From a virus: 41,085 nt of DNA. Below are positions 4,792 through 41,085 of this stretch, piece by piece; position 1 is the stretch's first letter, and every line of letters starts with the position of its first letter. The translations under genes and the position numbers were made by a program. The stretch covers positions 1 to 41,085 of IMG/VR virus record IMGVR_UViG_3300034069_000436. The stretch is one strand, 5' to 3'. The notes below the pieces were generated by a model. The model searched no databases. It saw only the letters and a list, made by a program, of their open reading frames with translations, and had not been told where the DNA came from.

Positions 4792-6290
4792 ACCACTCCC
4801 CGGCGCATGTTGCTGTAGTCGATCGGCTTGGCAGCCACCGGAGCAGGGCGGATTGCAGCCGTTTCAAACGACTTGTAGCCGTGACTGAACTCATCATGCA
4901 GGGCGTAGGATTTGAATACGCCCAACTTGTCGTCCCATGCCTTGCGGTAATTATCCAGACACTGGACCAGACGCGCGCAACGCTCTTTGTCGATCCACAC
5001 ACTTGCGAGGAAAGCTCGGCTAGCATCAATGCCGGCCTGCTCGCTCTCGATCCGCTTCACAACCTGGACCGGCTTGATACCGCTACGCTCGGCATGAACA
5101 CGCCGGGGTTCAGCCGTATCAGTCAGCGAGCGCTGGTCCGCGTCATGTGGCATGTAATGACGAGAGTAGTTATAGCCCTTTTCGGTCAGGACGCGCGCGT
5201 AATGTGCGAAACCCTCTCCGCTGTTTTCGTAGTAGTCGATTGCCCGGCGCTCAAACCCATGGTCCTGCCAGAACGTGATTGTCATGCTATCGTTCAGGCC
5301 AAGGTCCCACGTCGTGTAGACTGGTGCGTCCATAATCGGGATGCGGCAGAGGCGTCCTTCACGCCTCATCTTCGACATCTCGCGAGAAAAGTAAGCGCCT
5401 TCAACCGAAGCCTCAAACGCTTCCTGTGCTGTCGATGGGAACTCGCGGCGCATATCGTCGCCCTGCTGCTCGGCCTTCTTAACGTACCAAGCCCGCTGAT
5501 CGCGAGTTAGGAAAATGCCATGGTCGGCTTCAAGCTTGCGGAAGTAGTCCTGCATTTCTCGCGGCTCATCGACTGCTTCGGCGAGGACGTATTCGGGGCT
5601 TGTCCACCACGGCAGAAAGTGGAACTTAAAATCGAGAGCGGTCAACGCTTCGCCTTCCTCTGCCCGCTTTCGCGCTGCTTCAGCCATGTCGTAGAAGTGC
5701 CCAGCTTGGCCCTCTGCCGTGCTTTCTACCGTAATCGTCTGCCCCGCCTGGACGGTGTTGAAAGCGCCGGAACGAACCTCCCGCGCTCGCTCAGGGGCTT
5801 TTGCGCACAGTTTACCGTACTCACTCACATGCAACCGCTGGAGCGTACCGGAGCGAAGGGAAGTGCCCACTCGAATGGACGAGCCGTTGTTGAAACGGAT
5901 GCTTTTGGCGCTGTCCTGCTCAGCCGAGCGAACCCGCCGGAAAGCCGCTGGCAAATTGTCGTAGGCAAACTTGATCTTGTCGGCGAAGAACGCTTCGGCG
6001 TCAGTTAGGTTGTGAGCGATAACGCCGGCAGACAGGTTAGGCGTGAACAAGCAATCGTCCAGCATATCCAGCTGAACGTAGGTTGTGATGCCCTTCTGCC
6101 TAGCCTTGAGCACGATATCCATGCCGTGGCGTTCGTCAGCAAACTGGCGCTGGTCGTCGTTCATTCGAAACGGCACGACGGCGCCGAACTTGTCTTTAAT
6201 CGAATAGAACCCGCCCTCAAGCCGGCTCCGCTTCGTAGGGTAGCGGGTTCGGACACGGCCGAAGAACTCCTGCTCGGCTGGGCTAAGCAT
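4788..6290 (-). CDS. terL: Terminase large subunit
   Basis: Track ORF 4788..6368. Preferred start is MLSPAEQEFF at 6290, overlapping the terS stop. ATPase-like N-terminal half (DIVLKARQKGITT, LHVSEYG) and nuclease-like C-terminal half (TTWDLGLNDSMTITFWQ, HYMPHDA). Confidence 0.85.
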   Translation of the reverse strand: MLSPAEQEFFGRVRTRYPTKRSRLEGGFYSIKDKFGAVVPFRMNDDQRQFADERHGMDIVLKARQKGITTYVQLDMLDDCLFTPNLSAGVIAHNLTDAEAFFADKIKFAYDNLPAAFRRVRSAEQDSAKSIRFNNGSSIRVGTSLRSGTLQRLHVSEYGKLCAKAPERAREVRSGAFNTVQAGQTITVESTAEGQAGHFYDMAEAARKRAEEGEALTALDFKFHFLPWWTSPEYVLAEAVDEPREMQDYFRKLEADHGIFLTRDQRAWYVKKAEQQGDDMRREFPSTAQEAFEASVEGAYFSREMSKMRREGRLCRIPIMDAPVYTTWDLGLNDSMTITFWQDHGFERRAIDYYENSGEGFAHYARVLTEKGYNYSRHYMPHDADQRSLTDTAEPRRVHAERSGIKPVQVVKRIESEQAGIDASRAFLASVWIDKERCARLVQCLDNYRKAWDDKLGVFKSYALHDEFSHGYKSFETAAIRPAPVAAKPIDYSNMRRGVV

Positions 6291-13258: not shown

Positions 13259-13363
13259 GAAACGCGATATGACACGCCAAAATAATTGACGCAAGAGGGT
13301 TGACGCGCAAAGCCTTTGACGGCAGATAGGGGCAGCAGGCCACCCCGGCTTTGGGAGAGCACC
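13259..13363. promoter_or_regulatory. Divergent early control region with three TTGACG direct repeats
   Basis: TTGACG occurs at 13286-13291, 13300-13305 and 13316-13321 (spacing 14 and 16 nt), in an AT-richer stretch (aaaataattgac). SD GGGAGAG lies before the GTG at 13364. The Cro-like ATG at 13258 has almost no leader. Confidence 0.45.
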
Positions 13364-14143
13364 GTGACGACAACCGCACCGACGATCGATCAAGACCGCT
13401 TGGCGGAGGTTGCAAAGCGCGGCCTCGATAGCGGCGCACATCATGGCTTCGAAGATGGCATGTGCGCGATGGAAGCTGCCAGCTACATCGCTGGTGAGCC
13501 CTGGAGCGACCATCCCAAGTGCGTCAGCCCGGTCATCGCAGCGTTCCTTCGTAGCTGGAATGACAGCCTGCCAACCGATGAGCGTAACGCGTTGATAACG
13601 CCGGACGTGATCGCTATAACGATCGGCACGCGCGGGTCTGCCAAGCTGGAAGAGCGCCGCTCGCTGATGGCAGCCGACTGGCTGGTCCGCACGCATACCG
13701 TGGCATGGCTCCGGCTCGCGAAGCTGGACAAGCAAGCCGACGCGTTGGAAGGTTTGCCCGAAATTACGGCAATGGCGCAGGTGCCGCCAATGCGGGCACC
13801 TATTGAGGGTGTGCGTGCTGACGCAAACGCTGCCTGGGACGCTGCCGGGGCCGCTGCCGGGGCCGCTGCCAGGGACGCTGCCAGGGCCGCTGCCAGGGAC
13901 GCTGCCAGGGCCGCTGCCAGGGACGCTGCCAGGGCCGCTGCCAGGGCCGCTGCCTGGGCCGCTGCCGGGGCCGCTGCCGGGGCCGCTGCCAGGGCCGCTG
14001 CCGGGGCCGCTGCCGGGGCCGCTGCCTGGGACGCTGCCGGGGACGCTGCCAGGGCCGCGCTCATGCCGACCCGTCTGACTCTGCAAGCATCTGCTGGCGA
14101 TCTGATCCGCCGCATGTGCGCACTGACCGAGGTGGCCTCGTAA
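13364..14143 (+). CDS. Early protein with a globular N-terminal domain and a (A-A-W/G/R-D/A)19 repeat C-terminal half
   Basis: Track ORF 13316..14143. Start preferred at the GTG at 13364 after GGGAGAGcacc. The N-domain motif is CAMEAASYIAGEPWSDHPKCVSPVIAAFLRSWNDSLPTDERNAL. The C-terminal half is encoded by the 12-bp array. Confidence 0.7.
   Translation: MTTTAPTIDQDRLAEVAKRGLDSGAHHGFEDGMCAMEAASYIAGEPWSDHPKCVSPVIAAFLRSWNDSLPTDERNALITPDVIAITIGTRGSAKLEERRSLMAADWLVRTHTVAWLRLAKLDKQADALEGLPEITAMAQVPPMRAPIEGVRADANAAWDAAGAAAGAAARDAARAAARDAARAAARDAARAAARAAAWAAAGAAAGAAARAAAGAAAGAAAWDAAGDAARAALMPTRLTLQASAGDLIRRMCALTEVAS
13829..14056 (+). repeat. In-frame 12-bp tandem array, 19 units
   Basis: The unit is GCTGCC[T/G/A]GGG[A/C]C. 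I counted the units one by one: 13829-13840 ... 14045-14056. Only 2 of the 12 positions vary. Confidence 0.95.
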
Positions 14144-14415: not shown

Positions 14416-14627
14416 GCCACACTCCCGGACCATGGGCGGTCAGCAAGCAAAAGGCCCGGCGCGTCACCGCCAGCGGCGTCATCATCTGCAACGCCGTCCT
14501 CCGCAATCAGGGTGGTCCAAAGCACAAGGCGTACCTGAAGGACGAGCATGAGGCGGAGGCCAATGCCAATCTGATCGCTGCTGCGCCTGACTTGGTGGAA
14601 GTCGCCGGAGATGCCTTGTCTGGCTAG
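14412..14627 (+). CDS. Hypothetical small phage protein (GPW ... ANANLIAAAPDL motif family)
   Basis: MSHTPGPWAV...EAEANANLIAAAPDLVEVAG, with an ATGA overlap upstream. I recognise this motif pair from many small phage proteins of unknown function. Confidence 0.6.
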   Translation: MSHTPGPWAVSKQKARRVTASGVIICNAVLRNQGGPKHKAYLKDEHEAEANANLIAAAPDLVEVAGDALSG

Positions 14628-14947: not shown

Positions 14948-15234
14948 GCGCTCCCAACATCGCATGCGTCCTTGCTGACGCGGTTGGTCCGCTTCTTGCC
15001 GGCCTAACCGACGCCATGGGCTGCAAAGCCGACGTGTCTTGGTTTTCCGCCTCCGATCGCTGTCATGCGTTCTGGAGCGTTAACCTGCACGATCATGATC
15101 GATGCTTTAGCGGCAACGACATTGACAGCCCGAGCCGCGCCTTGATGAAAGCTAATGCCCAGCGGCAGGAATGGGAGGAGCAGCAGACTCGTGGCCAGAA
15201 ATTGTTGGCCCAGGACGCACAGGTGTCGGCGTGA
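14944..15234 (+). CDS. Hypothetical protein
   Basis: 96 aa, with an ATGA overlap upstream. Confidence 0.55.
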   Translation: MSAPNIACVLADAVGPLLAGLTDAMGCKADVSWFSASDRCHAFWSVNLHDHDRCFSGNDIDSPSRALMKANAQRQEWEEQQTRGQKLLAQDAQVSA

Positions 15235-15920
15235 ATAAGCCTCACATTACCTACCACGCCGACTTTGACCAAGGTTCGGAGCAATGGCTGGCGGCGCGTT
15301 GCGGGCTGCTCACCGCGAGCGAGATGAAGCTGATCCTTACGCCGACGCTCAAGGTCTCCAACAACGATAAGACACGCCAGCACGTTTATGAGATCGCTGG
15401 CCAGCGTATCACCGGATATGTCGAACCGCACTACATTGGCGACGACATGCTGCGTGGTCACGAAGACGAGGTGCGCGCACGGCTTGCCTATGCCGAAAAG
15501 TTTGGCGAGGTCACGGAGTGCGGGCTGGTCACGAATGACAGTTTCGGCTTTACCATAGGCTATTCGCCCGACGCTCTTGTTGGCAATGGCGGCCTGATCG
15601 AGTGTAAGTCGCGTCGGCAAAAGTATCAGGTGCAAACGATTATTGCTGGCGTGCCGGACGAGCACGTTTTGCAGCTTCAGACCGGTTTGTTGGTCACCGA
15701 GCGAGCGTGGATTGACTACGTGTCATACTCGGGCGGAATGCCGATGGCGGTGATCCGCGTCGAATCTGACGCAGAAATGCAGACAGCTATTGTTGCGGCG
15801 GCGACTGACTTTGAGCAGCGCGTTACCGATGCGATCAGTGATTACCAATCCGCCCTTTCGTCTGGCCGCCTTCGCTGGTGCCCGACCGAGCGCGTTATCG
15901 AACAGGAAATGCATCTATGA
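15231..15920 (+). CDS. YqaJ-like (lambda Exo-type PD-(D/E)xK) recombination exonuclease
   Basis: Track ORF 15171..15920. Start at the GTG at 15231 (GTGA overlap). Motifs: FDQGSEQWLAARCGLLTASEM, GYSPDALV, LIECKS. Confidence 0.8.
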   Translation: MNKPHITYHADFDQGSEQWLAARCGLLTASEMKLILTPTLKVSNNDKTRQHVYEIAGQRITGYVEPHYIGDDMLRGHEDEVRARLAYAEKFGEVTECGLVTNDSFGFTIGYSPDALVGNGGLIECKSRRQKYQVQTIIAGVPDEHVLQLQTGLLVTERAWIDYVSYSGGMPMAVIRVESDAEMQTAIVAAATDFEQRVTDAISDYQSALSSGRLRWCPTERVIEQEMHL

Positions 15921-16561: not shown

Positions 16562-16707
16562 CCGGCAGCTACCGAGACATCCTCGCCCGCCGCGAGCGCA
16601 AACGCCCGGACGGGACGTCTGTCTGGCCGCTGCGCAACAGCGACAATCCCAGCCGGTTTCGGACCGATGCTGGGTCTCAGGTAAGCGGGGAGAGCGCACG
16701 TGGCTGA
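16558..16707 (+). CDS. Hypothetical 49-aa protein (below the track cutoff)
   Basis: My translation: MTGSYRDILARRERKRPDGTSVWPLRNSDNPSRFRTDAGSQVSGESARG. ATGA overlap upstream, and an 8-nt overlap with the next GTG start. Confidence 0.4.
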   Translation: MTGSYRDILARRERKRPDGTSVWPLRNSDNPSRFRTDAGSQVSGESARG

Positions 16708-17239
16708 CCTGCTGTCCGCACTTCGCGAGCCGCCCGTCGTGGGTCGGTTCTACATGGTCCCGGTCATCCGCGACTACCCGCTGGGTGGCAAGCTCGGCAC
16801 CTGGCCTGTGATCGGGCCGAAACATTCGGACATCGATTTCCTCAATTTCCGAGACGAGCATTATCATGTCGATGCGCGGTTCGTCACCGCTGCCCAAGAG
16901 CGGGCCATCACTGTTGGCGGACAACGTAGCTTAGAGGCGGTTGTCGGCAGTTGGCCGCTTGCATCTTACAGGCACGAGTTGCCGAAGGGCAGGCCCGCAC
17001 TGGCTCGGCTGAAGTGTCGCCGCAGCGCTTATGGCTATGCCTATGGTCATCAGCCGGCAATCAAGAAGCTGCGTGAGCATTACGGCGACCCGGCCGAGCC
17101 TATCCGCCTCGCCGATAGACGCCTGCTCTGCCCGCACCGCAAGGCCGATCTGTCCAGCTTTGCTCCGGGCGATGATGGCCTCGTGATTTGCCCGCTTCAC
17201 GGCCTGCGCGTGCGTTGTGCTCAAGGCCAGACCTCATGA
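16700..17239 (+). CDS. Protein with a C-terminal Rieske-type [2Fe-2S] ligand motif
   Basis: 179 aa. CPH-x17-CPLH (CPHRKADLSSFAPGDDGLVICPLH) fits the Rieske pattern CxH-x(15-17)-CxxH. Confidence 0.55.
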   Translation: MADLLSALREPPVVGRFYMVPVIRDYPLGGKLGTWPVIGPKHSDIDFLNFRDEHYHVDARFVTAAQERAITVGGQRSLEAVVGSWPLASYRHELPKGRPALARLKCRRSAYGYAYGHQPAIKKLREHYGDPAEPIRLADRRLLCPHRKADLSSFAPGDDGLVICPLHGLRVRCAQGQTS

Positions 17240-17268
17240 CCCGTCAACCACAACCAAGGGAGGGCGCG

Positions 17269-17955
17269 ATGCCCGTTGAGAAGTTCGAAGTCCGCAACCG
17301 CTGGTCCAGTCGCATCCAGTTCACTGCCGAGATCACCTGCGCGCCCGACGCCACGATCGGCGTGAAGTTGGGGCTGGCAGTAAGGTGGGCGAGAAAGAGC
17401 GGTGCCGTCCTGCGCGGTGCCGACCTGAGCGGTGCCGTCCTGCGCGACGCCGTCCTGCGCGACGCCGTCCTGCGCGACGCCGACCTGCGCGACGCCGTCC
17501 TGCGCGACGCCGACCTGAGCGGTGCCGTCCTGCGCGACGCCGTCCTGCGCGACGCCGACCTGAGCGGTGCCGTCCTGCGCGACGCCGACCTGAGCGGTGC
17601 CGTCCTGCGCGGTGCCGTCCTGCGCGGTGCCGACTGGCTCCCGCGTATCACCAACATTCACCAGTCGATCTACAATGCCGCTCGCCAGGAAGGCGCCCTC
17701 GACATGGCATCGTGGCACCGTAATGGCTACTGCGGCACGACGCATTGCCGGGCTGGATGGGCGGTGGTGCTGACCGGCGAGGGCGGCCGGGTGCTTGAGG
17801 GCATCTACGGCACCAACGCCGCTGCTGCGCTGATTTATCAGGCCAGCGACCCAAAGCTGGAGCGTATCCCTAACTGGATCGCGTCAAACCAAGACGCGCT
17901 GGACGACATGCGGATGAAGGCGGAAGCGGAAGCTGCCTCTGCGGTCTCCTCATGA
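17269..17955 (+). CDS. Pentapeptide-repeat protein with a Cys/His-containing C-terminal domain
   Basis: Track ORF 17188..17955. Start at MPVEKFEV, preceded by AGGGAGGgcgcg. It carries 16 consecutive [G/D]A[V/D]L[R/S] pentapeptides. The C-domain motif is WHRNGYCGTTHCRAGWAVVL. Confidence 0.8.
   Translation: MPVEKFEVRNRWSSRIQFTAEITCAPDATIGVKLGLAVRWARKSGAVLRGADLSGAVLRDAVLRDAVLRDADLRDAVLRDADLSGAVLRDAVLRDADLSGAVLRDADLSGAVLRGAVLRGADWLPRITNIHQSIYNAARQEGALDMASWHRNGYCGTTHCRAGWAVVLTGEGGRVLEGIYGTNAAAALIYQASDPKLERIPNWIASNQDALDDMRMKAEAEAASAVSS
17401..17637 (+). repeat. In-frame 15-bp tandem array, about 16 units
   Basis: Units are GGTGCCGTCCTGCGC, GACGCCGTCCTGCGC, GACGCCGACCTGCGC, GACGCCGACCTGAGC and GGTGCCGACCTGAGC, counted consecutively from 17401. 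Several adjacent units are 15/15 identical. Confidence 0.95.
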
Positions 17956-17987
17956 CCCCTCCCATGGATAGAGGCGAGGGGCGGGAG
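17952..17987 (+). repeat. Junction module copy J1
   Basis: atgacccctcccATGGATAGAGGCGAGGGGCGGGAG. The last 24 nt are identical to J2 18791-18814. Confidence 0.9.
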
Positions 17988-18758
17988 ACGCGCTCCGGCA
18001 TCATTCGTGACATTGATGGCGTGCTGCACGTCGTCGCGCTCTCCGGTGGTCACGACAGCACCATCCTGTCATTGCTGCTGAACGAGCGCGAGCCGCGTCC
18101 GTACCTTCATGTCTGTACGCCGACTGGCGATGAGTTGCCGGCAATGTTTGAGCATTGGAACCGGCTTAGCGGGATGCTCGGCAGCCGTATTATGCCGATC
18201 ATGGCGGGAAGCCTCAAAGGCGTCATCAGCCAAAAGGGGTGTTTGCCCAATTTCCGCCGGCGGTTCTGCACCCGCGTTTTGAAGATTGAGCCTTTCCGCG
18301 CTTTCATGGCTGCACAGGCCAAGGATGGGCCGGTCGTCTCCTATGTGGGTCTGCGCGCTGATGAGCCGGGACGGGCTGGCGGCGCTTACGACAACATTCC
18401 CGGCGTCACAATTCGTTACCCTTTACGCGAATGGGGCATGGGCGAGGACGAGGTTCAGGCCGGCTTGGCTGAGCGCGGCGTCAAGTGCCCCGATCGGACT
18501 GACTGCGGTCTGTGCTATCACCAGCGCATCGGCGAGTGGTGGGAATTGTGGAAATACCATCCCGACCGGTTTGATGATGGGGTAACGATTGAACAGCGCT
18601 ACGGGGAAACGTTTCGCACGCCGGGGCGCGATAGCTGGCCCACGTCGCTGAAGGAAATGGGCGAACGCTTTGAGGCCGGCGACAAGCCGAACACCAGCCT
18701 CAATCGCATGGCTCGGGAGCGTCAGCAAACGGGCTCTTGTCGCGTGTGTTCGCTATGA
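17952..18758 (+). CDS. PP-loop ATP pyrophosphatase, PAPS-reductase-like family
   Basis: 268 aa. VVALSGGHDSTILSLLL is the SGGxDS PP-loop. ATGA overlaps at both ends. Confidence 0.75.
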   Translation: MTPPMDRGEGRETRSGIIRDIDGVLHVVALSGGHDSTILSLLLNEREPRPYLHVCTPTGDELPAMFEHWNRLSGMLGSRIMPIMAGSLKGVISQKGCLPNFRRRFCTRVLKIEPFRAFMAAQAKDGPVVSYVGLRADEPGRAGGAYDNIPGVTIRYPLREWGMGEDEVQAGLAERGVKCPDRTDCGLCYHQRIGEWWELWKYHPDRFDDGVTIEQRYGETFRTPGRDSWPTSLKEMGERFEAGDKPNTSLNRMARERQQTGSCRVCSL

Positions 18759-18814
18759 CCATCCCCACCCATTCAGCAGGATCAGACACCATGGATAGAG
18801 GCGAGGGGCGGGAG
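18755..18814 (+). repeat. Junction module copy J2 (longest form)
   Basis: atgaccatccccacccattcagcaggatcagacaccatggatagaggcgaggggcgggag. It shares its 5' block with J3 and its 3' block with J1. Confidence 0.9.
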
Positions 18815-19606
18815 GGTGCGCAGCTTCGTGTGCTGTCGCTGTTTGCTGGCATCGGTGGCTTCGACTTGGGTCTTGAGCGGACCGGCGAATTTCGCACGGT
18901 TGCCTTTTGCGAGATCGATAAACGTTGCCGGCACGTGCTGGCGAAAAACTGGCCTGGAGTGCCGATCTATGAAGACGTGCTCGACCTTAGTGCCCAGCAT
19001 CTCGCCGCAGCAGGAATTGCCATTGATGTCATCTGCGGCGGGTTCCCATGCCAGAACATCAGTCTTGCCGGACGAATGGAGGGGATTGGTGGCGTCAAGT
19101 CTGGACTATGGCAGCACTACCTTCGTCTCGTCGAAGAAGTCCGTCCGCGCTGGGTCGTTGTCGAAAACAGTCCCGTCCTTCGCTCTCGCGGATTGGAAAT
19201 CATGCTCGGGCAGCTTGCTGCGATCGGGTATGATGCGGAGTGGCACTGTCTACCCGTTAATGCCTTTGGCGCGCCTCACCGGCGGGATCGCCTCTGGATT
19301 GTGGCCTACCCCGCTGGCGACCGAGACGGGCTTCCGCCGCTCCAGATTTCCACAGGGTGGGACCAGTCTAAGCACCGCGCTTGGTGGGATACCGAACCCG
19401 CTGTGGGTCGAGTGGTTGATGCGGTTTCCGCCGAACCACACCGCCTTGCCGAGCTCGGAAACGCCGTCTGTCCGGTAATTCCGGAGGAGATTGGCCGGGC
19501 AATTCTAGACGATGCGTTTGACCGCGCTGTCCGGCGTCCTTGCCCTGGTTGTGACCGACCGAACTACGACCATCATTGGAATTGCGCCGCGCAGGTCGCC
19601 GCATGA
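18755..19606 (+). CDS. DNA (cytosine-5)-methyltransferase, compact form
   Basis: Motif I LSLFAGIGGFDLG. Motif IV GGFPCQNIS. Motif VI VVENSP. Motif VIII HRRDRLWIV. Motif X GNAVCP. The variable region is very short. An alternative start is at 18791 (MDRGEGRE, AGGA 10 nt upstream). Confidence 0.85.
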   Translation: MTIPTHSAGSDTMDRGEGREGAQLRVLSLFAGIGGFDLGLERTGEFRTVAFCEIDKRCRHVLAKNWPGVPIYEDVLDLSAQHLAAAGIAIDVICGGFPCQNISLAGRMEGIGGVKSGLWQHYLRLVEEVRPRWVVVENSPVLRSRGLEIMLGQLAAIGYDAEWHCLPVNAFGAPHRRDRLWIVAYPAGDRDGLPPLQISTGWDQSKHRAWWDTEPAVGRVVDAVSAEPHRLAELGNAVCPVIPEEIGRAILDDAFDRAVRRPCPGCDRPNYDHHWNCAAQVAA

Positions 19607-19658
19607 CTCCCACCCATCTAGCAGGATCAGACAACATGGTAGAGCGAGAGGCGCGAGA
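19603..19658 (+). repeat. Junction module copy J3
   Basis: atgactcccacccatctagcaggatcagacaacatggtagagcgagaggcgcgagag. It aligns to J2 with a few substitutions and two small indels. Confidence 0.85.
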
Positions 19659-20166
19659 GATCTTGGCGCAAGCTTATGAGCGGGCGAACCTGACCTGCCC
19701 GGCCACCGACATTCGTGCTGGCAACAAGGTAGATTGGGTCAGGGAAGCGGTTGCCTTGGACGCTATCTCCGCCGCCCTCCACCCCACCCAGCCTGTAGGT
19801 GAGCCCGAAGGATGGCGGGAGGCCCACTCTGACGATCTGGCCGTTGATAGGTTCGCGGCAAAGATGAAAGCGAAGCTGGCGCAGGCTCGCGACAAAGGTC
19901 GCGGTGGCTGGGACGACCCGGAGCAGTGTGGCCCAACCATTCTGCTGCCAATGCTGCACGATCACCTCGCTAAGGGCGACCCGGTGGACGTGGCGAATTT
20001 TGCTATGATGCTGGATCACTACGGCGCGTCCACAGCCCCTTTCCCCACGTCGAACGTACAACGAGCCCGCGTCAAATGTGATCGGCTAGGTTGCGATTGG
20101 GCCAACGGTCGTGCCGCCCTTGCATCCCTGCCCACCAATGATGCCACGGAGACATTAAATGGATAG
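19603..20166 (+). CDS. Hypothetical protein. The middle region faintly resembles MazG-like all-alpha NTP-PPase helices but lacks the acidic metal motif.
   Basis: Track ORF 19576..20166 trimmed to MTPTHLAGSDNM (ATGA overlap). ...KLAQARDKGRGGWDD...HDHLAKGDPVDVANFAMMLDH. Confidence 0.5.
   Translation: MTPTHLAGSDNMVEREAREILAQAYERANLTCPATDIRAGNKVDWVREAVALDAISAALHPTQPVGEPEGWREAHSDDLAVDRFAAKMKAKLAQARDKGRGGWDDPEQCGPTILLPMLHDHLAKGDPVDVANFAMMLDHYGASTAPFPTSNVQRARVKCDRLGCDWANGRAALASLPTNDATETLNG
20128..20143 (+). repeat. DR1 left copy (ctgcccaccaatgatg)
   Basis: Perfect 16-nt match to 20417-20432. It encodes LPTND in the 3' end of gene 19603..20166. Confidence 0.9.
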
Positions 20167-20452
20167 CCAATGGTCGGAAATTGCCGCCAACGGTATCATT
20201 CACGCTGCTACAATGGCTTTTCAGGCTTGGGAGCAAAACTCATACGAGTTCACGCGTCCTTGCGTCCTGTTCAAGCCCGTATTGTCAAGAGACGGAAATC
20301 AGTGGTGCGCTTTGCTAGGCGACAATCTGCAAGAAGGTATCGCAGGTTTTGGAAACACGCCTTATCTTGCAATGTATGCTTTTGACAAAGCGTTCAATAC
20401 AGAAACCATCGTCCCTCTGCCCACCAATGATGAGGATCGCAGCCGTGGGTGA
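20159..20452 (+). CDS. Hypothetical protein in a low-GC cassette
   Basis: 97 aa. It looks visibly AT-richer than its neighbours (by eye near 50% GC). It is bracketed by the two DR1 copies. Confidence 0.6.
   Translation: MDSQWSEIAANGIIHAATMAFQAWEQNSYEFTRPCVLFKPVLSRDGNQWCALLGDNLQEGIAGFGNTPYLAMYAFDKAFNTETIVPLPTNDEDRSRG
20417..20432 (+). repeat. DR1 right copy
   Basis: Perfect 16-nt match to 20128-20143. It encodes LPTND in the 3' end of gene 20159..20452. Confidence 0.9.
20432..20452 (+). repeat. DR2 left copy (gaggatcgcagccgtgggtga)
   Basis: 18/21 match to 20688-20708. Contains the upstream stop and an embedded GTG start. Confidence 0.85.
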
Positions 20453-37100: not shown

Positions 37101-38435
37101 TCAGAGCTCCAGAACAGCATCGCGCATCGAGGCGAGCTGGGGTGTGGGTTGAAAATCGGCGGTGTAGGCGCAGGGCATCTCGCCCGCGGTCGACATCCAG
37201 CTGTTGTAGCCGTTGTCGAGTGTCCACTCGACCAGCATGCCGCCACCGGTCGACTGAACGATGGGCAGCGCGACATCGAGGTACTGCTTGCGGATGTTGC
37301 TCGCGATCCGCTCGTACTCGTAGGCGCTGTAGCTGGTCGGCGCGGGCGTATCGACCTTGCCATAGGCGTCGATGATGCCATCGCCGTAGCCCGTCCGGAC
37401 GTCGATCTCGGAGACGATGATCTTGAGCCCGAGGCCGACGAGGCCTTGCAGAAAGCTGCGCAGGCGCGGCGCCGAGAACGACAGCCGGAACTGCATGTGC
37501 GCCTGCTGGGCATAGCCATCAACCACTGCGCCCGCCTGTATCGCCGCCGTGATGCCGGCGAGCGTGTTCTGGGCAAGGTTGTTGAACGTCGACGAGCCCA
37601 GCTGCTCCGTCTGGTCCTGACACCAGAACAGCGGCACGCCGGGTAGCTTCTGCCGCACGCGAGCGATGGCGAACAGCACCGGCGCCAGATAGTCGTCCTG
37701 GGTGGCGGTCGAGGCGGTGCGGCCAGCGACCGTCGCCGCCGCGGTGTTCCACGGATTGGTCCGCCAGCCGCCCGGATTGGTGGAGCCCGCGGAGAAGAGC
37801 TCGTTCACGACGTCGGCGTTCGCGATGATGTCGGTGTATCCGGCGAGCAGCCCGCAGATCGCGTCGATGCGGGCGGCCATCAGCGTCTGCCACTGGCCGG
37901 GGTTCTGCTGGAGGTACGTGTCGATCCAGGTGCCGATGTCGCGCTTGGGGTAGACGCCGATGACGTGGCCGCGGACCTTCTTCCCCTTGGCTCGCGCGTC
38001 GTCCAGGAATGCCTTGGCGGGGTTGAGGTTGAAGCTGCCCAGCGACGGATTGAAGTTGTCGCCCATCATCACGTAGCCGGGCACGTACAAGTCGACGTTG
38101 TCCGCGATCCACGCCTGCCGGGTGGCATAGCCCGCTGGCCCCGCCGCGCCCATGACGTCGCCGCCCTGGATCGAGGTGCCGAGCAGGATGCCCTTGTTGG
38201 CGCTGATCGTCTTGAGCAGCCCGCCGGGATCGACGGTGTAGCTGCCGACCAAAGCATTCCCAGAAACATCTGTTTCTCGGTTATTAGCTAGGTCAATTAA
38301 GGTACCCGCAATGCGGGTGGGAGCGACCAAAATAACGGCGGGTTGATGCCCACCCATCGAATTGACGATGACATCCTCGTCAGGAGTGGGCTGCCGACCG
38401 CCATACGACGCCAGCGTGTCCGACAACACAGACAT
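37101..38435 (-). CDS. Tail-associated glycoside hydrolase, GH10-like (clan GH-A TIM barrel)
   Basis: 444 aa. The ordered motif series is KGKKVRGHVIGVY, ADVVNELF, LFWCQDQTE, VDGYAQQAHMQ, LKIIVSEIDVR, LVEWTLDNGYNSW. This parallels GH10 RGH / WDVVNE / NDYN / G.Q.H / ITELD / WG..D..SW. Confidence 0.65.
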   Translation of the reverse strand: MSVLSDTLASYGGRQPTPDEDVIVNSMGGHQPAVILVAPTRIAGTLIDLANNRETDVSGNALVGSYTVDPGGLLKTISANKGILLGTSIQGGDVMGAAGPAGYATRQAWIADNVDLYVPGYVMMGDNFNPSLGSFNLNPAKAFLDDARAKGKKVRGHVIGVYPKRDIGTWIDTYLQQNPGQWQTLMAARIDAICGLLAGYTDIIANADVVNELFSAGSTNPGGWRTNPWNTAAATVAGRTASTATQDDYLAPVLFAIARVRQKLPGVPLFWCQDQTEQLGSSTFNNLAQNTLAGITAAIQAGAVVDGYAQQAHMQFRLSFSAPRLRSFLQGLVGLGLKIIVSEIDVRTGYGDGIIDAYGKVDTPAPTSYSAYEYERIASNIRKQYLDVALPIVQSTGGGMLVEWTLDNGYNSWMSTAGEMPCAYTADFQPTPQLASMRDAVLEL

Positions 38436-40830: not shown

Positions 40831-41085
40831 TTACGACGGGGTGATATCGGCGATCACACCGGATGCCGCGTCATTGCTGCACCGCAGAGTAACCTCCGTG
40901 TACATGGCATCACGGTCGGCAAGCCCGGTCGTCGCCAGCTTGCGACGCTGCATGGGGTCGAGTTCCATAATCTGCCACATGTCGGTATCCAGCACCAGCG
41001 CGTCGCGCGTAGTGCCGATGTTCCGATCCGGCACGAACGCCAACTCGCCGAAGTCCGACACGTACACGTCGGCGCCGCCGATGAT
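40831..41085 (-). CDS. Major capsid protein, C-terminal segment (same gene as 1..864; 40945-41085 duplicates 1-141)
   Basis: Track ORF 40831..41067 is in frame with my capsid reading across the overlap. Position 40945 corresponds to position 1 at a codon boundary. Confidence 0.85.
   Translation of the reverse strand: MIGGADVYVSDFGELAFVPDRNIGTTRDALVLDTDMWQIMELDPMQRRKLATTGLADRDAMYTEVTLRCSNDAASGVIADITPS
40945..41085. repeat. Right copy of the 141-bp terminal direct repeat
   Basis: Identical to 1-141. Confidence 0.97.

Follow-up and report, generated by a model that had tools for sequence, protein, structure and literature searches.

The subject of this work is a block of five consecutive genes, named g1 to g5, in a viral DNA of 41,085 nucleotides (IMG/VR record IMGVR_UViG_3300034069_000436, positions 1 to 41,085; this whole stretch is called the window below). 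An initial annotation of this DNA had described five open reading frames (ORFs) running in the same direction on the + strand, and all five are present (Table 1). They had been described as a Rieske-motif protein, a pentapeptide-repeat protein, a PP-loop ATPase, a compact C5 cytosine DNA methyltransferase (MTase), and a MazG-like remnant, and these descriptions hold for g1 to g4 and not for g5. Two explanations had been offered for the block, namely, that the PP-loop protein g3 and the MTase g4 have a common target base, which they hypermodify, or that the block is simply a set of stacked anti-restriction functions. The second is the one we favour because the genes are not inherited together and because in a sibling phage two parts of the block are replaced by other genes. 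We therefore propose, with moderate confidence, that the block is a mosaic stack of exchangeable accessory cassettes, most likely for counter-defence, and not a dedicated multi-enzyme pathway.

The block genes are not co-inherited

Among about 100 loci of the phage clade of g3 homologues, which is described below, g1, g2, and g5 were found in none, and no g1 homologue was found near a g3 homologue. A C5-MTase like g4 was found in four of them (L053, L067, L080, and L087). DNA MTases made up 7 of the 147 ORFs that are immediate neighbours of g3 homologues (three C5, three N6_N4, and one MT-A70). With a panel of nine methylase queries an MTase-like ORF was detected in the flank of 16 of 90 non-redundant g3 loci, about five of these ORFs being adjacent to the g3 homologue, and 74 of the 90 loci had no detectable MTase within 6-8 kb. 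The three closest relatives of g3 (77-84% identity) lie in early operons beside CI/Cro-type regulators and Erf/Rad52/YqaJ recombinases, and no adjacent MTase was found in any of the three. The five-gene order is essentially absent beyond this genome, an outcome that the initial annotation had counted against its proposal.

Junction repeats and a cassette swap in a sibling phage

The starts of g3, g4, and g5 are marked by a repeat of about 50 nt that has two parts, a leader and a spacer (Table 1). The leader, ATGGATAGAGGCGAGGGGCGGGAG, makes the first eight residues of g3 and g4 identical, and the spacer that stands before g4 and g5 has the form ATGAC..CCCACCCAT..AGCAGGATCAGACA.C. A 20-mer from the junction occurs twice in the window, compared to 0.03 occurrences expected by chance. 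When the junction motif was used as a query two viral contigs were matched, one of which is unrelated AT-rich DNA. The other, the public viral contig L170, is a sibling of this phage with 85-92% nucleotide identity in patches.

L170 keeps g2 (86% nucleotide identity) and the 5' part of g5. It has an unrelated gene for a 143-aa protein where the window has g1, and a single unrelated C5-MTase of 239 aa where the window has g3 and g4. This replacement MTase begins with the same leader (MTPPMDRGEGRG), and behind it, in front of the g5 homologue of L170, comes an identical spacer (repeat sites 4990-5025 and 5700-5745 of L170). Since conserved short sequences, the leader and the spacer, bound the swap in L170, the slot that lies between g2 and g5 is a site at which cassettes vary; in the window it is occupied by two cassettes, and both of them have a leader copy of their own. 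The leader and spacer repeats look like recombination boundaries for cassette exchange. Thus the replacements in L170, one at g1 and one at g3 and g4, make the block a mosaic stack of cassettes. The comparison of the two siblings also suggests a way in which phages may swap anti-defence cassettes, that is, through short repeated sequences at gene starts and gene ends. Two further leads were followed up: the sole metagenome match to the junction motif, in a contig of 329 kb, was due to chance, and a second sibling that was sought through P0242 had no contig on record.

Table 1. Genes of the block and copies of the junction repeat, with positions in the window
Feature	Coordinates	Strand	Evidence or content
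g1, Rieske-type 2Cys-2His motif protein, 179 aa	16700..17239	+	Pfam Rieske, phrog_10072, homologue alignment, AF2
g2, pentapeptide-repeat protein, 228 aa	17269..17955 (alternative ATG 17236, overlaps g1 stop)	+	PF00805, phrog_31265
g3, PP-loop protein of the SspD family (putative ATP pyrophosphatase and sulfurtransferase), 268 aa	17952..18758 (alternative start 17964, 264 aa)	+	PADLOC SspD
g4, predicted compact orphan C5 cytosine DNA MTase, 283 aa	18755..19606 (alternative start 18791, 271 aa)	+	PF00145, TIGR00675, phrog_363
g5, 187 aa	19603..20166 (likelier start 19636, 176 aa)	+	phrog_8298 E = 4e-21
Junction repeat copy 1, g2/g3 boundary	17937..17987	+	leader ATGGATAGAGGCGAGGGGCGGGAG, encodes MDRGEGRE at g3 start (repeat family D9)
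Junction repeat copy 2, g3/g4 boundary	18755..18814	+	spacer ATGACC..CCCACCCATTCAGCAGGATCAGACACC then leader ATGGATAGAGGCGAGGGGCGGGAG
Junction repeat copy 3, g4/g5 boundary	19603..19659	+	spacer ATGACT.CCCACCCATCTAGCAGGATCAGACAAC then leader-like ATGGTAGAGCGAGAGGCGCGAGAG

The PP-loop gene g3 is an orphan member of the SspD family

The PP-loop motif SGGHDS that had been noted in g3 was confirmed (residues 31-36), and g3 matches phrog_424, 'PAPS reductase' (PAPS, 3'-phosphoadenosine-5'-phosphosulfate), with E = 3e-29. The other key residues are C55, C106, C185-x2-C188, and the pair C263-x2-C266, which ends two residues before the C-terminus (…GSCRVCSL). The Pfam model PAPS_reduct (PF01507) gave 20.3 bits, below its cut-off of 22.5, and only residues 27-140 aligned. 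Among the PADLOC models SspD matched nearly the full length of g3 (E = 2e-37, 127 bits), while DndC and BrxP gave E values of 7e-3 and 2e-2; these models have no curated cut-off, and for comparison an operon-encoded SspD scores 367 bits. The initial annotation had considered that g3 might cluster with the sulfate-assimilation enzymes; it clusters with SspD.

The family of g3 comprises 2,124 proteins at E <= 1e-5, mostly of 250-260 aa and many of them on contigs of 40-50 kb; the genes lie for the most part in phage and prophage modules for early functions or replication. A scan of species-representative genomes with the family alignment gave two groups of g3-like proteins, one cellular and the other in phages and prophages. 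The cellular proteins are about 30% identical to g3, and their genes are preceded by genes for proteins of 321 aa and 1,152 aa and followed by genes for proteins of 632 aa and 512 aa. Among these neighbours PADLOC recognized SspB, SspC, SspF, and SspG and it called the g3 homologue itself SspD (367 bits). The cellular group consists of bona fide Ssp systems with sspB-sspC-sspD-sspFGH operons. The phage and prophage proteins are 40-84% identical to g3, and their genes have as neighbours DUF2800/PD-(D/E)XK nucleases, SNF2 helicases, family A polymerases (PolA), Enc34-type single-stranded DNA-binding proteins, primase-polymerases, and recombinases. No SspB, SspC, DndD, or DndE was found in about 100 loci of this phage clade. 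Pfam and PADLOC found none of the four in the block either, and a complete gene set for phosphorothioate (PT) modification is not present there.

Residues were compared between 88 phage-clade and 47 operon SspD sequences, and a residue was taken as shared when it was present in at least 90% of the former and at least 80% of the latter. SGGxDS is invariant across both sets, and the other residues common to both include H26, T58, E61, R104, C106, T107, K111, YVGLRADE, R141, C185, C188, Q191, E195, W196, E214, W229, P230, C263, and C266. Thus g3 is in the same length class as the SspD of SspABCD-SspE/SspFGH systems (about 250-280 aa), is about 30% identical to it, and keeps all the shared invariant residues. 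It differs from this SspD in three respects. SspA, SspB, SspC, and the sensor/restriction genes are missing from the window and from the approximately 100 phage-clade loci; the clade of g3 is separate and carries the phage/prophage signature CTPTGDELP where operon SspD has FCDTDKELT; and the score of g3 against the SspD model is 127 bits as against 367 bits. By these comparisons g3 is an orphan of the SspD family, and its catalytic residues look intact.

The structural model of g3 has a PP-loop fold (pLDDT 88), and Foldseek found only generic PP-loop relatives for it, namely, CysH, adenosine-5'-phosphosulfate (APS) reductase, GMP synthase, LarE, and TtuA, with TM scores of about 0.43-0.5. A profile search of the PDB for a solved SspD or DndC structure gave only a weak match, 'PptA' (21fy_C, 270 aa, E = 0.16). 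This chain has CT..LK and C..C segments in common with the g3 family and it may be a newly solved relative. Phage proteins annotated as 'PAPS reductase' or NinC-like (phrog_424) belong to the same broad superfamily as g3 and, like g3, are typically located among non-essential early or nin-type genes. However, g3 is about 23% identical (E ~5e-4) to the NinC-annotated proteins of Chi-like Salmonella phages and it is much closer to SspD than these proteins appear to be.

Two observations were made on individual homologues of g3. The closest one in the annotated phage collection, with 49% identity, is in NC_023841 (L001), 'Dunaliella viridis virus SI2', a Caudoviricetes genome whose recorded host is a green alga; this host seems open to doubt, and in the record genes of the two strands are interleaved in an odd way. 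Some long ORFs of the clade (L055, L070, L007, L004, and L050) seemed to have N-terminal domain fusions, and these were rejected as Arg/Ala-rich read-through of high-GC DNA.

Precedents and the proposed function of g3

Two phage-specific genes have been reported to let a Vibrio podophage overcome the Dnd defence of its host, and one of the two codes for a 479-aa fusion of a PAPS reductase and a Dam-type methylase, p0018 of the Vibrio crassostreae podophages 44E38.1/44E38.2 (Piel et al., bioRxiv 10.1101/2021.05.05.442762). We located this fusion in the record of phage 44E38.2 (L168, 3016-4455). The best match of its N-terminal domain is SspD (E = 1.4e-15), and the match to residues 24-141 of g3 (25% identity, E = 2e-8) is weak but significant and confined to the N-terminal half. 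Like g3 with g4, p0018 is a phage-borne SspD-like PP-loop domain paired with a DNA MTase, and it is the only member of its kind with genetic evidence for counter-defence. On the other hand, p0018 is one polypeptide with an N6-adenine MTase of the Dam type whereas g3 and g4 are separate genes and the MTase is of the C5 type, and no alignment was obtained for the C-terminal half of g3, which contains both CxxC pairs. The relationship is a distant one. The statement in the initial annotation that no characterised system has this gene order needs to be qualified accordingly, in that the p0018 fusion confers Dnd resistance; the five-gene order itself was seen at none of the approximately 100 g3 loci.

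Other reports bear on proteins of this kind. In a 2026 survey, phage PAPS reductases that are regulated by Aca were described as DndC/SspD homologues and as candidate anti-defence genes (PMC13551039). According to work on BREX type 4, PT synthesis depends on a protein with a PAPS-reductase domain and on a P-loop NTPase, and PT was absent from isolates without the minimal gene set (PMC12914056). Other papers still treat the PAPS reductases of prophages as sulfur-metabolism genes.

PT synthesis needs an ATPase (SspC/DndD) and a subunit for DNA recognition (SspB/DndE), and since g3 has neither of these partners, we propose a role in counter-defence for it. Most likely g3 would counter PT-based immunity (Dnd/Ssp/BREX-4). 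It would hydrolyse ATP to AMP and pyrophosphate, thereby activating a phosphate or carbonyl oxygen, and would pass on persulfide sulfur from the host cysteine desulfurase IscS via the CxxC pair of its C-terminal tail. By plugging into the PT machinery of the host, or by interfering with it, g3 would allow the phage DNA to escape PT-dependent restriction. The g4 protein would methylate the phage DNA and so protect it from restriction that is sensitive to cytosine methylation. The remaining genes, g1, g2, and g5, would be further accessory cassettes that code for a Rieske-type metal-binding protein, a short pentapeptide β-helix, and a protein with a Lar-linked domain, respectively.

Phage 'PAPS reductase' genes are very common, the clade of g3 alone having more than 2,000 homologues, and they are routinely filed as auxiliary genes of sulfur metabolism. 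A full-featured SspD homologue without partners fits the idea that such genes are weapons against phosphorothioate-based immunity, for which there is one genetic precedent. The locus, in which a PP-loop gene adjoins a methylase gene, is a compact test case.

Several points weigh against this proposal. An identity of about 30% to cellular SspD leaves it doubtful whether g3 could dock on SspB/SspC or DndD/E of a host. The phage clade is found in prophages of many lineages, many of which may be without PT systems, and this would argue for an autonomous or a different function of g3. The anti-Dnd precedent is a distant relative of g3 whose mechanism is not known, and the fusion was transferred together with a second gene of unknown role (bioRxiv 10.1101/2021.05.05.442762). 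The MTases that are adjacent to g3 homologues or near them, in about 5 and in 16 of 90 loci, respectively, and the known fusion leave room for cooperation between the PP-loop protein and the MTase. Lastly, for g1, g2, and g5 an anti-defence role is guessed from the context only.

Alternative explanations for g3 and g4

The same membership in the SspD family and the same orphan status would be expected if g3 were a decoy or poison that disables the PT immunity of the host and leaves the phage DNA unmodified. It could do this by titrating the IscS persulfide or SspB/SspC (DndD/E), or by removing or altering the PT marks that SspE-type sensors need, and a position in an early operon is the usual one for inhibitors of host defence. 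Two considerations make this explanation unlikely. The catalytic residues are fully conserved in about 90 diverse phage sequences, which argues for a working enzyme, and stopping new modification would be a slow way to inactivate restriction modules that attack unmodified DNA.

The clade neighbours of g3 are mostly replication and recombination genes, its distant phage relatives are annotated as NinC or as 'NinC-like recombination protein', and its structural neighbours LarE, TtuA, and MnmA score like CysH. It could be argued from this that g3 has no part in defence and that it modifies RNA by chemistry of the ThiI, MnmA, TtcA, or TtuA type or serves replication or recombination, which would place it in the long-unexplained group of NinC-like phage 'PAPS reductases'. 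However, the similarity of g3 to SspD is far above that to the tRNA-thiolation families (E = 0.04 for TilS and 0.5-0.7 for MnmA), and g3 is without an RNA-binding domain such as THUMP or PUA. We regard this explanation as improbable.

It is also rather improbable that the orphan SspD-like enzyme is a self-contained DNA-marking device that depends on host IscS only and works without SspB/SspC or DndD/E. In such a device an adjacent or fused MTase would act as a guide in some phages, and the mark would be a phosphorothioate or a thio-base. If this were true, phages would have their own PT-type epigenetic camouflage.

The explanation by a joint pathway is that g3 and g4 act on the same nucleotide, or that g4 supplies the sequence recognition for g3, and that the outcome is a hypermodified or sulfur-containing mark on the phage DNA, made without host Ssp/Dnd partners. 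The two genes are adjacent and their stop and start codons overlap, a natural fusion of a PAPS reductase domain and an MTase exists and is functional in anti-Dnd defence, and about 5 of 90 g3 loci have a directly adjacent MTase on the same strand. Nevertheless, we consider a joint pathway quite unlikely. As described above, no MTase was detectable within 6-8 kb in most g3 loci (74 of 90) and none is adjacent to g3 in its nearest relatives; where there is a partner MTase its class differs from locus to locus (C5, N6_N4, or MT-A70); and the slot in L170 holds an MTase alone. A P-loop NTPase, which PT synthesis in its known form also requires (PMC12914056), is missing from the block. The motifs of g4 are ordinary and its family is widespread without PP-loop partners. 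The hypermodification of a single base by g3 and g4 that had been suggested in the initial annotation is disfavoured for the further reasons that g4 keeps the normal S-adenosylmethionine-binding and catalytic motifs of a methylase and that the nearest functional relatives of g3 act on the DNA backbone, by phosphorothioation, and leave cytosine alone.

It is very unlikely indeed that g3 is an auxiliary metabolic gene, coding for a PAPS/APS reductase of the CysH type by which the phage would raise sulfate assimilation in the infected cell. The source annotation does read 'PAPS reductase/FAD synthetase', phrog_424 is filed under auxiliary metabolic genes, and the top Foldseek matches are CysH and APS reductase. 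However, the Pfam PAPS_reduct score is under the gathering score, the Foldseek match covers no more than the generic core of the PP-loop fold (TM 0.43-0.5), g3 ends in CRVCSL where the catalytic tail of CysH-type enzymes is expected, the extra CxxC pair is common to g3 and SspD, and no other sulfur-assimilation genes were found near the g3-clade loci examined. The catalytic tail of CysH differs from the C-terminus of g3, ...GSCRVCSL.

The MTase gene g4

That g4 codes for a compact C5-MTase was confirmed by matches to PF00145 (137 bits), of which only the N-terminal half of the profile aligned, to TIGR00675 (114.5 bits against a cut-off of 100.65), and to phrog_363 (E = 4e-68). Motifs I (FAGIGG), IV (GFPCQ), VI (ENS), VIII (HRRDR), and X (GNAV) can be read in g4. 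Motifs VIII and X are about 55 residues apart, which leaves a very short target-recognition domain, and the protein has a C-terminal extension of about 30 aa that contains CPGC...HHWNC. The target-recognition region had been called unusually short. It is short but not unusual, since such compactness is normal in a large family of phage proteins of 245-255 aa. A search with g4 matched 1,229 phage records, and in 63 of them at least 80% of g4 was covered. Che9d gp80 (252 aa) of Mycobacterium phage Che9d, gp51 of Sulfitobacter phage phiGT1 (phiGT1_51, 245 aa), and a protein of Synechococcus phage Ssp-JY42 are 42-46% identical to g4 over about 85% of its length. Like g4, these MTases have the short spacing between motifs VIII and X, are orphans, and lie in early regions of phage genomes; unlike them, g4 has the Cys/His-rich C-terminal extension and the MDRGEGRE leader. 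Judged by its motifs and relatives, g4 is predicted to be an ordinary orphan phage methylase.

The genes g1, g2, and g5

The motif CPH-x17-CPLH reported for g1 is present, and the score of Pfam Rieske (PF00355) is 22.1 bits against a cut-off of 20.3. This alignment is limited to positions 42-74 of the 88 in the profile, that is, to the two ligand loops. The g1 protein also matches phrog_10072 (E = 1e-11) and has 169 homologues, and the length typical of the family is about 180 aa. The four ligands, C144, H146, C164, and H167, are at the extreme C-terminus and are invariant in 25 aligned homologues; in addition there is an N-terminal cluster of invariant His and Asp residues (H42, D44, H54, H56, and D58) and an invariant C106. 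Conservation of the N-terminus among the homologues supports the GTG start at 16700, and the JGI call of 161 aa looks truncated. The AF2 model of g1 has a pLDDT of 93 and a pTM of 0.88. When it was compared with the PDB and BFVD no Rieske protein or other neighbour was found (best E at least 1.2, TM at most 0.21). With only two ligand loops aligned and no Rieske match for the model, g1 is not a complete Rieske β-sandwich. It resembles Rieske domains in having CxH-x17-CxxH in the typical CPH and CP.HG context, invariant in its family, and differs from them in that the motif is at the extreme C-terminus and the predicted fold is not the canonical one. Since the motif is invariant and the model has no neighbour, g1 probably binds metal through Rieske-type ligands that are set in a fold without a structural match, and going by the model it may be a new small metalloprotein fold that is carried by sphingomonad prophages. 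The homologues of g1 lie in the early operons of temperate phages, where the genes beside them vary, and one of them lies directly before a gene for a 901-aa N6/N4 methylase.

The pentapeptide repeats of g2 were confirmed (PF00805, E = 1e-24; phrog_31265, E = 1e-52). There are about 16-20 repeats of the A(D/N)LxG type, encoded by DNA with a 15-nt periodicity at 17352-17679 (~330 nt), and behind them lies a C-terminal domain of about 95 aa that is conserved, belongs to no known family, and is covered by phrog_31265 as well. It had been suggested that g2 has the fold of the DNA mimics Qnr and MfpA, which it resembles in the type of repeat only. The repeat type is the same, and the same right-handed β-helix is therefore expected. 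On the other hand, the Qnr and MfpA family models scored far below their cut-offs on g2 (MfpA 39.8 bits against 360, Qnr 21.9 against 240), the repeat array is roughly half the length of theirs, in which the full helix has about 8-9 coils, and g2 carries the conserved, unrelated C-terminal domain. What seemed to be a second pentapeptide gene upstream (repeat family D6, 14472-14504) was a chance similarity of the DNA; the ORF there has no repeats.

The suggestion that g5 is a MazG-like remnant was not borne out. Neither g5 nor 25 of its homologues had a Pfam match to MazG or NTP-pyrophosphatases, even at E <= 1, and a PDB profile search with g5 gave no MazG or other NTP-pyrophosphatase match. 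What is conserved in g5 is a core of some 70 aa (roughly residues 75-145), HxDDxAVDRF...KGRGGWDD...KGDPVDVANFAMM, which is found in proteins of 100-330 aa with varied flanks. In three homologues (P0307, P0320, and P0325) this core follows an N-terminal Lar restriction-alleviation domain (PF14354), and such fusions may be a lead towards anti-restriction, nothing more. The gene also looks like a mosaic: the N-terminal 75 residues and the C-terminal tail of g5 match the homologue in L170, and the 70-aa core is absent there. A second junction-like repeat, …CTGCCCACCAATGATG…, which encodes …LPTND…, was observed at ~20095-20143 and ~20414-20452, where g5 and the gene after it (20159-20452) have their 3' ends, and at 6021-6092 of L170.

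Gene starts and the genome around the block

The initial annotation had described the five genes as translationally coupled. ATGA overlaps of start and stop codons are indeed present at every boundary (17236-17239, 17952-17955, 18755-18758, and 19603-19606), but in three genes, g2, g4, and g5, an in-frame ATG further downstream is an equally or more plausible start. In g2 the ATG at 17269 is behind GGGAGG, and in g4 and g5 the ATGs at 18791 and 19636 each have AGGA 9 nt upstream. Downstream starts are also favoured by the JGI calls (264 aa for g3 and 176 aa for g5) and by the N-terminus of the g5 homologue P0243 (MVEREARE). Because these downstream ATGs have the better ribosome-binding-site context, strict coupling of g3 to g4 and of g4 to g5 is not certain. 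The genes are tightly packed and are surely co-transcribed. Scans for promoters and terminators over 11.5-24.5 kb gave nothing above chance, and in the same scan no terminator-like site on the + strand was found within the block.

Bases 1-141 of the window are an exact direct repeat of bases 40945-41085, and this 141-bp repeat at both ends indicates that the window covers the whole genome of a phage, about 40.9 kb in length. The repeat represents either terminal repeats or the overlap of a circular assembly. An SU10-type portal is encoded in the window, and the phage is a tailed phage. When the block was compared by megablast with 50,697 phage records there was no match. Homologues of g1 and g5 occur in genomes of Sphingobium, Novosphingobium, and Sphingomonas, and for this reason the host is probably a sphingomonad.

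The minus strand codes for a primase/helicase and an HNH endonuclease. The block is part of a long + strand operon that begins near 12.3 kb and that also contains a YqaJ-type exonuclease gene (15171-15920), and from this context it is plausible that the block genes are early genes. In the same region, at 13780-14106 in the + strand ORF 13316-14143, there is a tandem array of about 19-27 units of 12 nt, similar to GCTGCCGGGGCC. In translation the array gives a repeat of four residues (AAGA/AARD/AAWD…), which stands at the C-terminal end of a 275-aa protein with a weak match to phrog_3416, and the long ORFs on the opposite strand over this array are probably artefacts of the repeat. In the structural region a 444-aa protein encoded on the minus strand at 37101-38435 has a glycosyl hydrolase family 10 domain (Pfam E = 2e-19) and is possibly a tail-associated polysaccharide depolymerase.

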